64,000 bases of DNA. Origin: Escherichia phage FL15. Shown here one piece after another: positions 1,086 through 61,851 of this stretch. A program made the position numbers and the translations under genes. The DNA is taken from the sequence record PP400778. The stretch is one strand, 5' to 3'. Numbering within the stretch: the first letter of the stretch is position 1; each line of letters starts with the position of its first letter. The notes beneath the pieces are model-generated. The model saw only the letters and a list, made by a program, of their open reading frames with translations. It was not told where the DNA came from and searched no databases.

Positions 1086-1414
1086 TCAAATCAGTTTGAA
1101 ATAGTTTTCGTTTACATTTTCTTCTGTGATTGCTGTCTTAAATTCTTGACCGTTATCCGGTGTGATGAAATAACGGTCAGAATAATCACGAAAACGTTTT
1201 AAGTGAGATACCCCAACATTAACACCATTTTCCCAAAAACGAAAGGTAATCATTTTTGGTTCATATCGATAGTCGCTGGTTAACACAGTACCATCCCCGC
1301 GACGGGCTTCATAAACCGTAATACATTCACGATTAGCGGCTTTAAGGCATTCTTCAATAGTGCCGCACGAGATAATACTTACTTTTTCATCTACGATTTG
1401 TTCTACAGTCCACA
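1086..1414 (-). CDS. hypothetical protein
   Basis: ORF; likely start at ATG 1414 (MWTVEQ...) preceded by AGAGAGGA SD; the longer track ORF would include the promoter -10. Confidence 0.55.
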
Positions 1415-1446
1415 TAATATCATCCTCTCTTTGTTTCGATATGTGC

Positions 1447-1475
1447 ATTATACACTATTGCGTTACGCTGTCAAC
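1447..1475 (-). promoter_or_regulatory. sigma70-type early promoter (TTGACA-17-TATAAT)
   Basis: Minus strand TTGACA (1470-1475), 17-nt spacer, TATAAT (1447-1452), followed by conserved leader ATCGAAACAAAGAGAGGA. Confidence 0.6.
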
Positions 1476-2642
1476 TCTTTTTCAAAAGATTTTACGATAT
1501 ACATGATGGTGCTCAATTCGGACGGCGCTACTGTCTCTGTGTAGCCATCCGGCATATCTTCTTTCGAGATATAGGAAGTTTTACCTTTCATTACTTCCTT
1601 GATTTTGTTCTCTAATTCTAAGATCTTTTGACCGTCTTGTAAAGTCAATTCATAAAAGATCTCATGATCGAACTTTGAAACACGAGATTGGTTTCTCATG
1701 CGCTCATGTGTTTCTTTGTTTGTTATTCCAAATTTCACGCCAACAAAGGAATCATTGTTGGTTAATTTCTGTATATAAAGAGTTCCTGTCTTTAATGCCT
1801 GATAACCATGCTTAGAACACAACGGGCAGCGTGTTCCGCGATTAACAAAATTATCAATAGTTACATCCCATTCATGGTTACGTTCGCATGTCAGAAGTAT
1901 TCTTGTTAATGCACCTTTCCACTTTCCTGAAATCCCAATAAATTTTAGTCTGTTGGTTTCGCATATTTTTTTCAATTTGTTTTAATCGGTCACTTTTTGT
2001 TATTGGTGCTGTTCCGCTACATTTGCGACACCGACGACCTAGTTTGAACTTATCATAACTTTGTTCGTAAATGTGATTATTAGGACACTCAAATTTAAGT
2101 TTAGTTTTTGTTCCTCTCCATTCCCCAATTATACCCAAAAATTTATAATCTCCTTTATTTTCATTTATATAAGATAAGGAATCTTCTTTATCATGCATCT
2201 TGCCCCCGTTACATAAAGGACATCTTGTTTTTTGATGAATGAAATCTGTATATGTTGGTTGGTATGTGTGTCCGTTTGTACAGTTCATAATGAGTCTTGT
2301 TCTGCTATTTTTATACTCCCCACCAACAAAACCAACAAATACATCGTTTGTTTCTTGTTTTATTCTTTCTATCACATTGTTTGGGTTTAATCTTTGAGAA
2401 TCAACCACACATTTCTTACACGAAACGTTTTTCCTGATATTTGCTAGAGTTGATGTGTATTCATGCTTGTTATTACATAATATAAGAGCTTTTGTTTTGA
2501 GACCAGACCATTCTCCAACAAACCCCATGAAAGAATAACCAACTTCCAAACATGAATTTTTTACAACATTTTCCCAATAGAAGGGAGTTTTCGTGTTTCC
2601 TTTTATTTCTATACTAATCTCATGTGCTTGACGTACTAACAT
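1463..2642 (-). CDS. protein with four tandem ~65-aa Cys/His zinc-ribbon-like repeats, interrupted by a frameshift in an A7 run (ORFs 1878..2642 and 1463..1975)
   Basis: Repeats G-[FI]-x-G-x-W-x-G-x-x-T-[KR]...C-x3-H...C-x2-C occur 3x in the upstream ORF and 1x in the overlapping downstream ORF; linker lengths match only if one A is removed from the A7 run (plus T7 at 1966-1972). Start ATG 2642 has a GGAGGA SD. Confidence 0.55.
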
Positions 2643-2672
2643 ATTTTTATCCTCCGTTGTTTCGATGATTGT

Positions 2673-2700
2673 ATTATACATTACCACATCAGCATGTCAA
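2673..2700 (-). promoter_or_regulatory. sigma70-type early promoter (TTGACA-16-TATAAT)
   Basis: Minus strand TTGACA (2695-2700) and TATAAT (2673-2678), then leader CATCGAAACAACGGAGGA upstream of ATG 2642. Confidence 0.55.
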
Positions 2701-2723
2701 TACATTTTCATAAAATTTTAGGC

Positions 2724-2754
2724 AATAAAAAAAGCCTTCCCGAAGGAAGGCTTT
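2724..2754 (-). terminator. intrinsic terminator downstream of gene 32
   Basis: Hairpin AAGCCTTCC-CGAA-GGAAGGCTT followed by a U-run on the minus strand, just after the gene 32 stop. Confidence 0.7.
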
Positions 2755-6757: not shown

Positions 6758-7321
6758 TCATCCTCTTTTTGGAAAATTTAAATAAGCATACTCGCCAACT
6801 ATTTCATGTGCTGCACGGTCATAAGCCTTAGCCGCCTCAACTTCTGTCTCAAAGTATCCTAGATGTATATTCTTTCGATTGATAACAATATACGCCTTCC
6901 ACGGCTTTTTCTTGCTTGGTGATAATGATACACCTTTATATTTGCTATGGCAAGCCTTTTTCTTTGAGACGTTAAACTGATTTTGCTGTTCGGTTGCTTC
7001 TCTCATGTTTGACGGTCTATTGTTAGTTTTGTCTTGGTCTATGTGATCTATTCGTTCAACCTGAGTACCATACTCTAAAAACCAGACAACTCTATGTACA
7101 AACAGATTAAGTTTATGACCATTGTTGTAAAATGTAAAGTATAAATATCCTTCTTTATGGAGACATACCCTTACCACATCACCTTTTTTGTATATGGACC
7201 CTTCTTTTCGGAATCCAGCAGCTACAGAATCCTTTAAATGGTATAATATTCCATCGACATGATAGAATCTACCTTTTATCGCTTTCTGTGTCTCGATATC
7301 CCAAAATTTTGTTTTTGCCAC
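6758..7321 (-). CDS. free-standing HNH homing endonuclease with AP2 DNA-binding domain
   Basis: HNH motif (HRVVWFLEYG...IDHID.DK.NNRPSNMREAT) and AP2-like YKGVS...WKAYI...HLGYFETEVEAAKAYD; likely GTG start with GAGGTG SD; paralog at 30558-31121. Confidence 0.8.
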   Translation of the reverse strand: MAKTKFWDIETQKAIKGRFYHVDGILYHLKDSVAAGFRKEGSIYKKGDVVRVCLHKEGYLYFTFYNNGHKLNLFVHRVVWFLEYGTQVERIDHIDQDKTNNRPSNMREATEQQNQFNVSKKKACHSKYKGVSLSPSKKKPWKAYIVINRKNIHLGYFETEVEAAKAYDRAAHEIVGEYAYLNFPKRG

Positions 7322-7373
7322 AACAAACACCTCACACAATAAATAATTTCATATTATAACAGGAGACCCAATA

Positions 7374-11119: not shown

Positions 11120-11136
11120 GGGGGCGAAAGCCCCCC
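11120..11136 (+). terminator. GC-rich stem-loop after gene 34 (weak terminator or RNA stability element)
   Basis: GGGGGC-GAAA-GCCCCC hairpin; no clear U-run. Confidence 0.3.
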
Positions 11137-12299: not shown

Positions 12300-12328
12300 A
12301 GCCGATCCTCGTGGTCGGCTTTATTTTT
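12300..12328 (+). terminator. intrinsic terminator after gene 35
   Basis: Hairpin AGCCGATCC-TCGT-GGTCGGCT followed by TTATTTTTTA; the same stem recurs at 23316 and 61868. Confidence 0.7.
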
Positions 12329-12450
12329 TATACAGTTGGTTAAAACATAACCAAAACGAAGAAAGATCTTTAGAATAATAGAAAATTTGTTTCGGTTAAA
12401 AAATAGTCAGTGCCTACGGCACGTCGCGAAGCGATATTTTGTTAACATTC

Positions 12451-49927: not shown

Positions 49928-49958
49928 AATATTAATCTCCAAAAATAAAATCAGTATA

Positions 49959-57657: not shown

Positions 57658-58138
57658 TTCTCAGCCTTTAATCTTTCTAGTTCTTCTTCCAGTTCCTTAA
57701 TGCGCTTCTCGCGTTCAATATCACGTTGGATCTTAGTGGCGAATACTCGTTTAAACTGATTATAGTCATCAATTTTAAATACTTCCTCTTCACCGTATCG
57801 ACGTACAGAAACTTCGTAGTTGTTGAAAAATTGTTCCAACATTGCATCAGTGGTCAGTTCTGCCGATACCACTTTAAAATGACGTTCTTCTGATTGCAAA
57901 AACCAGTTGTGCGCGTATTCCCGTACATCATCAACATTGCGGCAGGTGTATACCGTGCCATCAATTTCAATCGCAGAAACATAATCAACATCCGATGCAT
58001 GGTGATCAAATGCGATAACTTTAAATGGACGGTCGCCTATAAACTCTGCTATTGCATCATTTACAACGCTAAAGTTTGCAAAATCTTCTCTCGTTTTCTT
58101 ATCTTTCCACTGATAGGTCACGCCAGCAACAAACATAT
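57654..58138 (-). CDS. member of tandem paralog family (WxD N-domain + coiled-coil tail)
   Basis: Start MFVAGVTYQWKDKK (GAGGA SD); N-domain aligns with neighbours (TYxW+D ... DRPF ... IEIDG ... +FF.EV); Glu/Lys-rich C-terminus. Confidence 0.6.
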
Positions 58139-58962
58139 TACCATCCTCGCTCTTTACCAATCAAAAATTCAACTTCACGACGTTTAATGTCTTCTTGAAG
58201 GTCTTTAATCTTCTGTCGGTCTTGCATGATTTCATCCATCTTGTCAAGTGCCGCAATGAAATCATCGAAACGTTCAAAGGTTTTACCTTCATTTGCTTCG
58301 CCAAATTTAACCATTGTCAGGCCGTAACGACTACTAAACAGACGTTTCAACTGTCCAACGATTTTAGAATCAGTGGTTATAACTTCCAATTCTTCTACTT
58401 CACGAAAGAATTTTCTATCAGAATCAATAAACCAGCTAGTTCCTTTATGGTCTCTATCTTCGGTTGCGCTCATTAGAGTATGGTCTTTACCATCAATTTC
58501 AATTACATCAATTTGCCCACATGGACTAACATTTTTAACAGTAAAAGGTCTATAATTTATTGCTCGTGCAATAACATAATTAAGGTTAGATACGTTTTCA
58601 GCATAATGACAGAAGTCGGTCATAGCATTCGCATCTTTCCAAGTATAAGTTTTACCAACTTCCCATTTCTGGGGAACTTCTTCAACTTCACGAAAGAATT
58701 TTCTATCGAATGGACTAAAGAAATATGTTGCAGTCCAAATGTCTTTTCCTGTAGCAGTTTTCGCCGTATGATAAACACCGTCTAGCTCTATTGCATCAAT
58801 CCAACCGTTACTCTCGATCTCGATGATGGTAAATGGCTTGTCACCAATAGCTGCACTGATATCGCTGTTAAGTGGAGAAAGAACACCTTCTCCGTTAGTA
58901 ATAAACTCAGTTTTAGCGTTTTCATCTCTCCAAGTGTAAGTTTTACCAATTTCCCATTTCAT
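58138..58962 (-). CDS. member of tandem paralog family carrying two N-domain copies
   Basis: 274 aa; MKWEIGKTYTWRD...DRKFFREVEE repeated as KWEVGKTYTWKD...DRKFFREVEE, then a helical tail. Confidence 0.65.
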   Translation of the reverse strand: MKWEIGKTYTWRDENAKTEFITNGEGVLSPLNSDISAAIGDKPFTIIEIESNGWIDAIELDGVYHTAKTATGKDIWTATYFFSPFDRKFFREVEEVPQKWEVGKTYTWKDANAMTDFCHYAENVSNLNYVIARAINYRPFTVKNVSPCGQIDVIEIDGKDHTLMSATEDRDHKGTSWFIDSDRKFFREVEELEVITTDSKIVGQLKRLFSSRYGLTMVKFGEANEGKTFERFDDFIAALDKMDEIMQDRQKIKDLQEDIKRREVEFLIGKERGW

Positions 58963-58974
58963 AATATATTCCCC

Positions 58975-59440
58975 TTAACCGATTTTATCAAGTTCGTTTA
59001 ATGCTTTCTCAGCTTCCTGTATAGCTTGCACTCTTTCCGGCATTTTGTCAAGAAAATCTTTCAACTCTTCAAAACTGGAGATATGACGCAAGGCGTTAGC
59101 ACCGATAGCCGCATGTGATTTGCATTCAAAGCGGATTTTATAATTATCCATCGCCAATTTGAGAAGATCAATTAATTTAGATTCTTCTGGAATAATAATT
59201 TCTTCAAATCTGCTACGGTCATGATCCAGAAACCAACAAGATAGACCTACATCGGTTGAACTCATATAAGTTCCATCATGAAGATAAACAGACCGCACGT
59301 ATCCTTTTTTTCGCATCAACCGACGCAACTTTAAACGGTAATCGCAGATATTTCAAATAATCAACATCATACCATTTAAAAAATTGGTTTGCATCTTTTA
59401 CATCTTTCCACGCATAGGTCTTACCAGCTTCCCATTTCAT
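58975..59440 (-). pseudogene. member of tandem paralog family interrupted by a frameshift at an A7 run
   Basis: N-domain start MKWEAGKTYAWKD (ATG 59440) is in a different frame from the rest (58975-59328); frames join at the A7 run (plus T7 59305-59311) and would be continuous with one fewer A. Confidence 0.55.
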
Positions 59441-59444
59441 AATA

Positions 59445-59972
59445 TCATCTCTCATTTTTGATACGTGATTCTAATTGGATCATACGGTCGCGCGTTTGTT
59501 TGTATTCTCGGATAGCACCGATCCGGCTAGGCATACCATCCAGTACGCTCTTAATACCTTCTAGGGTAGTAATTTTGGCAATGCTATTATGTAACCCCAT
59601 CTTATCGATCAACTGAATGTCGTAGGCTTCCATAAGCAGACCCAGGCGTTCTAAAGTTAGGTCTTCTTCTTTTTCTTCCGAATCTGGAATCTTAGGTTCA
59701 ATAGCAACTTCGGTAAAGAAACGACGCTCACCCGACCAAAACCACACACCGGAACAGCCAATAGGGGATTCTTTTAACGTCATAGAGTCGAAATTACTAC
59801 CAATAATAGTAATTTCTCTAACATCACCATCATCGTCAAGGTCTTCTACCCTAAACGGGCGACCAGCCAACAAGTCAACAATACATCTGTTAATAGACGA
59901 CGAAAATTTAGTAAGTTCGGCTTTCGACGCTTCGCATTCAATCTTGTAAGTTTTACCAACTTCCCATTCCAT
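59445..59972 (-). CDS. member of tandem paralog family
   Basis: Start MEWEVGKTYK with GAGGTG SD; same N-domain and helical C-terminal tail. Confidence 0.65.
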   Translation of the reverse strand: MEWEVGKTYKIECEASKAELTKFSSSINRCIVDLLAGRPFRVEDLDDDGDVREITIIGSNFDSMTLKESPIGCSGVWFWSGERRFFTEVAIEPKIPDSEEKEEDLTLERLGLLMEAYDIQLIDKMGLHNSIAKITTLEGIKSVLDGMPSRIGAIREYKQTRDRMIQLESRIKNER

Positions 59973-59982
59973 AATAATCACC

Positions 59983-61794: not shown

Positions 61795-61823
61795 GTTGTC
61801 CTCTCGTTGTTTTCGATGTGAGC

Positions 61824-61851
61824 ATTATACATGAGCTAATCATGTTGTCAA
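61824..61851 (-). promoter_or_regulatory. sigma70-type early promoter (TTGACA-16-TATAAT)
   Basis: Minus strand TTGACA (61846-61851), TATAAT (61824-61829), leader CATCGAAAACAACGAGAGGA. Confidence 0.6.

Follow-up and report, generated by a model that had tools for sequence, protein, structure and literature searches.

Near the start of a 64,000-nucleotide stretch of the genome of Escherichia phage FL15 (record PP400778; hereafter the window), two overlapping reading frames share between them a series of zinc-finger repeats and a nuclease-like C-terminus, and a run of seven adenines lies where they overlap. This raises the question of whether one gene or two is present and, in the former case, whether the interruption is a real mutation, an error in the sequence or an arrangement used for expression. 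The source, a T4-type coliphage similar to RB49, belongs to the genus Krischvirus, and the genes around the locus are arranged, all on the minus strand, in the order frd, a small gene, the endonuclease gene under study, gene 32 and gene 59. Compared to phage AV108 the window was ~97% identical overall with a mosaic pattern, and no identical record was present in the phage collection.

The interrupted reading frame

With the minus strand as the coding strand, the ORFs 2642..1878 and 1975..1463 were recognized as a single split gene (Table 1). The upstream frame is open over 1878..2687 (-) and has an ATG at 2642 with the GGAGGA of the upstream cassette (2655..2650) located seven bases 5' of it; if read instead from the ATG at 2681, this frame gives the FL15 protein XAO14293.1 without any difference. 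According to the preliminary description, the two frames could be rejoined by dropping one A of the A7 run (T7 on the plus strand), and both the run and the repair were confirmed exactly: removal of one A produced an ORF of 392 aa, identical to AV108 WPK33403.1 and GoldenSnicker WWD12779.1 and present without any change in nine contigs. The presence of a single gene rather than two, as well as the identity of this gene, are well supported. Inspection of the downstream frame found neither an ATG ahead of the catalytic motifs nor a Shine-Dalgarno sequence ahead of its TTG, so independent translation of 1463..1975 is unlikely and not expected.

Table 1. Positions of the interrupted gene, its predicted domains and its flanking elements in the window
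Feature	Position	Strand	Details
Gene 32 intrinsic terminator	2731..2754	-	10-bp stem followed by a T run (terminator scan); directly upstream of the cassette
Upstream promoter cassette	2639..2720	-	sigma-70 TTGACA-16-TATAAT 2700..2673, ATCGAAACAA leader, GGAGGA 2655..2650
Upstream frame, current state	1878..2642	-	254 aa: zinc-finger modules 1-3, 29 out-of-frame residues (NMRNQQ...DMRT), stop
CapR-type zinc-finger module 1	2409..2525	-	G40..C78; candidate ligands C56, H60, C75, C78
CapR-type zinc-finger module 2	2211..2333	-	G104..C144
CapR-type zinc-finger module 3	2019..2135	-	G170..C208
Frameshift site, A7 on coding strand (T7 on plus strand)	1966..1972	-	codons K225/I226; from alignment with relatives
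Downstream frame	1463..1975	-	module 4, nuclease domain, stop codon
CapR-type zinc-finger module 4	1817..1936	-	G236..C275; also modeled by AlphaFold
Predicted T5orf172/MUG113-type nuclease domain, GIY-YIG superfamily	1466..1795	-	residues ~283-392
Downstream promoter cassette	1412..1494	-	perfect TTGACA-16-TATAAT 1474..1447; next gene 1448..1086

An intact 1179-nt CDS was found at the same place in all six relatives: AV108, GoldenSnicker, G37-3, GEC-3S, Makalu_001 and Skers. Five of them have A6 at the frameshift site, while G37-3 has an A7 which is in frame and was created by a G-to-A change. The extra A is the sole difference between the window and both AV108 and GoldenSnicker across the 1179-nt gene; the remaining relatives differ by 5-20 substitutions and have the same gap as well. 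The frameshift is private to the FL15 genome. The protein cluster listing contained no record of the truncated product other than that of FL15, the truncated products had no exact match in the gene-position index, and the exact A6/A7 junction patterns had no match in viral_contigs or metagenome_contigs. Apart from the added A the gene matches intact copies at every base, so the frameshift is very recent. In the AlphaFold model the affected pair K225/I226 is placed inside the helix opening module 4 and not in a disordered linker. Another AV108 gene, WPK33494 (1179 nt, just past the window edge), was considered as a paralogue and rejected, as it is not paralogous. In annotation, the two ORFs should be joined into one frameshifted endonuclease gene, representing either a pseudogene or a sequence error that needs correction.

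Zinc-finger array and predicted nuclease domain

The repaired protein matched the Pfam CapR homology domain PF21817 in four separate stretches (E 7.7e-29, 100.1 bits against a curated gathering score of 24.2), overlapped by matches to the treble-clef zinc finger DUF4379, and it also matched PHROG 681 'endonuclease' at 1.9e-100; the GEC-3S and Makalu_001 orthologues are named 'CapR homology domain-containing protein' in UniRef. Any two of the four modules show 25-35% identity; they recur every 64 to 66 residues and share the pattern G-[FI]-x-G...C-x3-H...C-x2-C, in which the G, G, C, H, C and C positions are invariant. Four candidate metal ligands (C-x3-H...C-x2-C) are present in each of the four modules, for which zinc and DNA binding are predicted, and the Cys positions are mostly invariant or nearly so over 44 homologues. 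A full-length homologue with 94% identity was modeled by AlphaFold (pLDDT 91.9, pTM 0.44), which gave four equivalent modules, each made of a helix, three strands and a short helix, ahead of a strand-strand-helix-strand-helix domain; a pTM this low fits a beads-on-a-string arrangement of the modeled units. The four repeats noticed at the outset are real, as shown by the fourfold PF21817 match, their pairwise identity and the equivalent modeled modules, and their distribution, with three in the upstream ORF and one in the downstream ORF, is as first described; their spacing, initially described as a constant 25 aa, was 25 twice between the CxxC and the next G-[FI]-x-G, but 27 in the third case. 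No tandem repeat was detectable within the gene at the DNA level. The four fingers are old duplications, in contrast to the nearly identical fingers of the W115 allele described below.

The C-terminal domain was compared with the T5orf172 and MUG113 profiles (PF10544 and PF13455) at their curated cut-offs. The window's own domain scored below the cut-off with MUG113 (E 0.089, 13.8 bits against 22.3), and its link to the family is suggested by its homologues and its predicted fold. The homologue P0035, with 35% identity over the full length, passed the T5orf172 cut-off of 20 with 23.2 bits, and among 17 homologous C-termini ten matched T5orf172 and 12 matched MUG113, with best E values of 1.5e-5 and 2.4e-5, respectively. 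Invariant across the homologues are Y289, K303-F-G-I (303-306), R314, E344 and the G-x-T-E-T at 366-370. The 170-aa downstream ORF of the window itself was modeled by AlphaFold with a pLDDT of 94.2, and the C-terminal domain is predicted to have the three-stranded sheet packed on helices of the GIY-YIG fold; in the model of the full-length homologue, Y289 is in the strand 286-295, R314 in the helix 311-321 and E344 in the helix 337-350. Judging from their order and topology in the model, these three residues would be equivalent to Y6, R27 and E75 of I-TevI. The preliminary description had suspected a degenerate GIY-YIG core: the superfamily was supported by the homologue profiles and the fold, but not the degeneracy, since the nuclease core looks intact.

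Taken by homology, the gene is a free-standing, putatively mobile homing endonuclease of an RB49-like Krischvirus coliphage. By analogy with CapR, the four tandem CapR-type modules would read the DNA target, which the C-terminal T5orf172-type domain with its GIY-YIG fold would then cut. For this protein and for the Krischvirus alleles alike, zinc and DNA binding, nuclease activity and homing are predictions from homology.

Origin of the extra adenine

We lean slightly toward the A7 being a genuine, very recent replication-slippage mutation in a dispensable selfish gene. With the change from A6 to A7 at the start of module 4, translation would leave three fingers with 29 nonsense residues appended; rare slippage aside, neither module 4 nor the nuclease would be produced, and the element would be nuclease-dead in FL15. 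The FL15 annotation carries the same truncated product with its nonsense tail (XAO14293.1). A sequencing or assembly artefact, by which the phage would truly have A6 and an intact gene and the extra A would come from consensus building, has a considerable probability, although below even. It is favored by the gene being otherwise identical to intact copies at 1179 of 1179 positions, by the truncated product being recorded nowhere except in FL15, and by three other private changes in the window. Another A6-to-A7 change, at 59305-59311, splits the gene 59455..58975 (-) into ORFs of 59 and 117 aa; removal of one base gave 154/154 identity to AV108 WPK33486, a conserved gene with no known function, and TB34, Delraymugoa, Aragogtheria and SAP are identical to this 154-aa gene save for the gap. 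The remaining two are intergenic: at 12324-12329 the window has T6 against T5 in the eight best relatives, and at 49941-49945 it has A5 against A4 in AV108 and FL20. All four private homopolymer changes are of +1, which is also compatible with over-calling of homopolymers.

Against the artefact stands the sequencing platform: consensus errors in 7-base homopolymers are uncommon with Illumina MiSeq. The FL15 genome was obtained by Illumina MiSeq (2x250) with CLC assembly (PMC12032242). Furthermore, phage FL20 from the same study and pipeline appeared clean: in a comparison with the window and AV108 over ~48 kb, 462 runs of at least four bases were identical in all three, and only three homopolymer changes were private to FL20, none of them obviously gene-breaking. 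This indicates that the pipeline is not error-prone and that run-length changes of this kind, which FL20 has as well, are normal variation; together, the platform and the clean FL20 weaken the artefact explanation. In addition, an independent Logan contig (P0068 and P0066) contains a Skers-like allele split by a +1 A in another A6 run, corresponding to the T6 run 2228-2233 of the window; the contig is short, and the split frame ends with the tail ...HQKNKMSFM. Its split together with that in FL15 indicates that homopolymer frameshifts recur in the endonuclease gene, whose A6 runs were struck independently at least twice, an illustration of selfish-gene decay. Frequent frameshifts have been described in the T5orf172 endonuclease family (PMC10448857, PMC8096241).

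In contrast to the private runs, the C6 run at 11131-11136 is probably common to G37-3 and FL20, the matches of which cover an equal length. The frameshifted 154-aa gene is a member of a group of tandem paralogous genes at 58138-59981 (-), each starting with MKWE[IAV]GKTY...; the array had no Pfam match, and one of its members (274 aa) appears internally duplicated.

Besides pseudogene and sequencing error, the preliminary description had left room for slippage-dependent expression. Programmed or tolerated recoding would give a full-length nuclease from A7 either by +1 ribosomal slippage (tRNA-Lys on A-AAA-AAU) or by the polymerase dropping an A, with the frameshift acting as a throttle on a toxic nuclease. 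A +1 shift on GAA-AAA-AAU would indeed restore the wild-type ...QIEK-ICETN exactly, slippage is known to occur at runs of A, and the expression of homing endonucleases is generally kept low (PMC2988022). However, the out-of-frame arrangement is conserved in none of the relatives, all six being in frame, including G37-3 with its A7; the run has just seven bases against the approximately nine or more of an A/T run expected for polymerase slippage, and the codon in the A site, AAU, is neither a stop nor rare. Inspection of the sequence upstream of the slippery A7 found no Shine-Dalgarno-like element, and the 86 nt downstream of it folded no better than shuffles (z = +0.59). Because no relative is out of frame and the stimulatory signals are absent, slippage-dependent expression is disfavored: programmed slippage is unlikely and the absence of programmed recoding well supported, which leaves the recoding explanation as a whole very improbable.

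The real product might also be the truncated protein itself, domesticated as a three-finger, nuclease-free site-specific DNA binder which would act as a repressor like CapR or as a target-site shield. CapR offers a precedent, being a stand-alone DNA-binding domain derived from such endonucleases that represses a promoter (PMC8096241), and the truncated ORF retains both a strong promoter and a Shine-Dalgarno sequence. Such domestication is hardly credible given zero substitutions relative to intact alleles, and hence no adaptive changes, a tail of 29 out-of-frame residues, a truncation which in the model severs the helix opening module 4, and a truncated state known from one record only. A combination of both ideas, in which the A7 is real and the strong early promoter yields a stand-alone three-finger CapR-like binder with traces of nuclease made by +1 slippage on A-AAA-AAU, is likewise highly improbable; if true, it would be a snapshot of the first step by which a homing endonuclease turns into a repressor with sequence specificity or a shield of the target site, the kind of origin that has been proposed for CapR. 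The finding matters little beyond correct annotation; two by-products, the recurrent hits in A6 runs and the allelic series described below, are of mild interest for work on mobile elements of T4-type phages.

The variable locus and comparison with known systems

The interval between gene 32 and the frd-adjacent gene is variable among the relatives. It is empty in JSE, contains an unrelated 110-aa ORF in G5211, and contains both a G5211-type ORF and the endonuclease gene in Makalu_001. Seven records carry the FL15-type allele, in all cases between gene 32 and the frd-adjacent gene. The allele of W115 encodes 338 aa with three fingers nearly identical to one another (L010 1664-2680), which is a recent tandem duplication, and that of RB49 encodes 485 aa with five fingers (L011 3164-4621). 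Variable presence beside an essential gene (gene 32), a mark of free-standing homing endonucleases, was therefore observed. At the DNA level, the similarity between alleles extends from the left flank through the nuclease domain to ~1777-1795 and resumes at ~2616-2640, from the start codon into gene 32, while it was undetectable between the finger arrays (~1796-2615). In agreement with this, the last ~70 residues are almost identical between proteins that are otherwise 40-55% identical. The Krischvirus gene 32/frd locus thus has zero, three, four or five fingers, with a constant nuclease, swapped arrays and duplicated early-promoter flanks, and this allelic series is a convenient natural system for studying how finger arrays determine the target specificity of T5orf172 endonucleases.

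The locus is flanked by two promoter cassettes. The upstream one follows the gene 32 terminator, also annotated in GEC-3S, G37-3 and Makalu_001, and serves the endonuclease gene, while the downstream one serves the next gene, its -35 hexamer being made up of the Leu-Thr codons that close the endonuclease gene. Both perfect promoters carry ATCGAAACAA after them, with promoter and leader together covering 2700..2657 and 1474..1431, and no occurrence of this combined motif is expected by chance. The upstream cassette is a ~83-bp repeat of 1412-1494, and the copies are 72-75% identical across genomes. Empty and filled alleles differ exactly between the two promoter copies, and the lone promoter at the empty JSE site matches the upstream copy. 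Recombination between the ~83-bp promoter repeats would remove or exchange the bracketed gene.

Cassettes of this kind are known as PeSL (promoter-early stem-loop) and mediate modular shuffling in phages of the RB49 group (Arbiol et al., 2010, PMC2839356). The likeness consists in a strong sigma-70 promoter and a terminator stem-loop bracketing a variable gene (PMC2839356); PeSL shuffling, however, is passive and accepts any cargo, while the cargo here, itself a putative endonuclease, might drive its own spread. The gene 32/frd locus is not discussed in the PeSL paper (PMC2839356). As a series of swapped-finger alleles at a PeSL-bracketed site by gene 32, the locus is tidy and unsurprising. 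Elsewhere in the window, a third copy of the promoter plus leader (TTGACA-16-TATAAT-6-ATCGAAA) with two mismatches was found at 61808-61851 (-), the only other one in the 64 kb, and may be a further PeSL-type cassette. A separate free-standing endonuclease gene with HNH_3 and AP2 domains (Pfam E 1.6e-12 and 3.6e-08) is located at 6758-7339 (-), with the RNase H region on one side and the long tail fibre gene on the other, and AV108 lacks it at this position; the combination of HNH and AP2 domains in phage homing endonucleases has been discussed by Barth et al. (PMC10448857).

The gene is an object of a known kind, a CapR/T5orf172 putative homing endonuclease, whose intact copies are already deposited and named. 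According to Barth et al. (2023, PMC10448857), zinc fingers of the CapR, DUF723 or DUF4397 type occur singly or in multiple copies in most T5orf172 endonuclease genes, and the closest in architecture are the T5orf172 endonucleases gp121, gp130, gp165 and gp174 of phage ICP1 and Orf141 of T5, with the same repeated CapR-type fingers at the N-terminus and T5orf172 at the C-terminus. The signatures shared with these genes include variable presence, domain shuffling, variation in repeat number, essential genes as neighbors and frequent frameshifts; the homing of the ICP1 genes lacks experimental demonstration (PMC10448857). The differences are in the host lineage, here an RB49-like T4-type coliphage (RB49 is absent from the main text of Barth et al., PMC10448857), and in the finger ligands, which are C-x3-H...C-x2-C in the FL15 gene and CxxC...CxC in CapR.

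CapR itself, after which PF21817 was named, comes from the Vibrio cholerae satellite PLE, where it represses the capsid operon; its cysteines are required for DNA binding (Netter et al., 2021, PMC8096241), and it resembles the N-termini of ICP1 proteins that end in T5orf172 and were proposed as homing endonucleases (PMC8096241). It shares the zinc-finger DNA-binding module with the FL15 gene product, but is a single stand-alone repressor domain without a nuclease, in contrast to the four modules fused to a nuclease in the latter.

Among T4 genes, the seg group likewise consists of free-standing genes of the GIY-YIG superfamily, in particular segG, which adjoins gene 32, with the promoter of the downstream gene embedded in the coding region (PMC2988022), and the embedded promoter of the FL15 gene recalls both the seg and the mob genes of T4 (PMC2988022). 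The possibility that the FL15 gene occupies the slot of segG was rejected, since segG is found upstream of gene 32, with gene 59 as its other neighbor (PMC2988022), while the FL15 gene is downstream of gene 32. The domain order is also reversed, Seg proteins having a canonical N-terminal GIY-YIG and C-terminal DNA binding, and the FL15 gene a T5orf172-type nuclease at its C-terminus. Finally, the FL15 endonuclease gene has an early-type consensus promoter, in contrast to the T4 endonuclease genes, none of which has one (PMC2988022).
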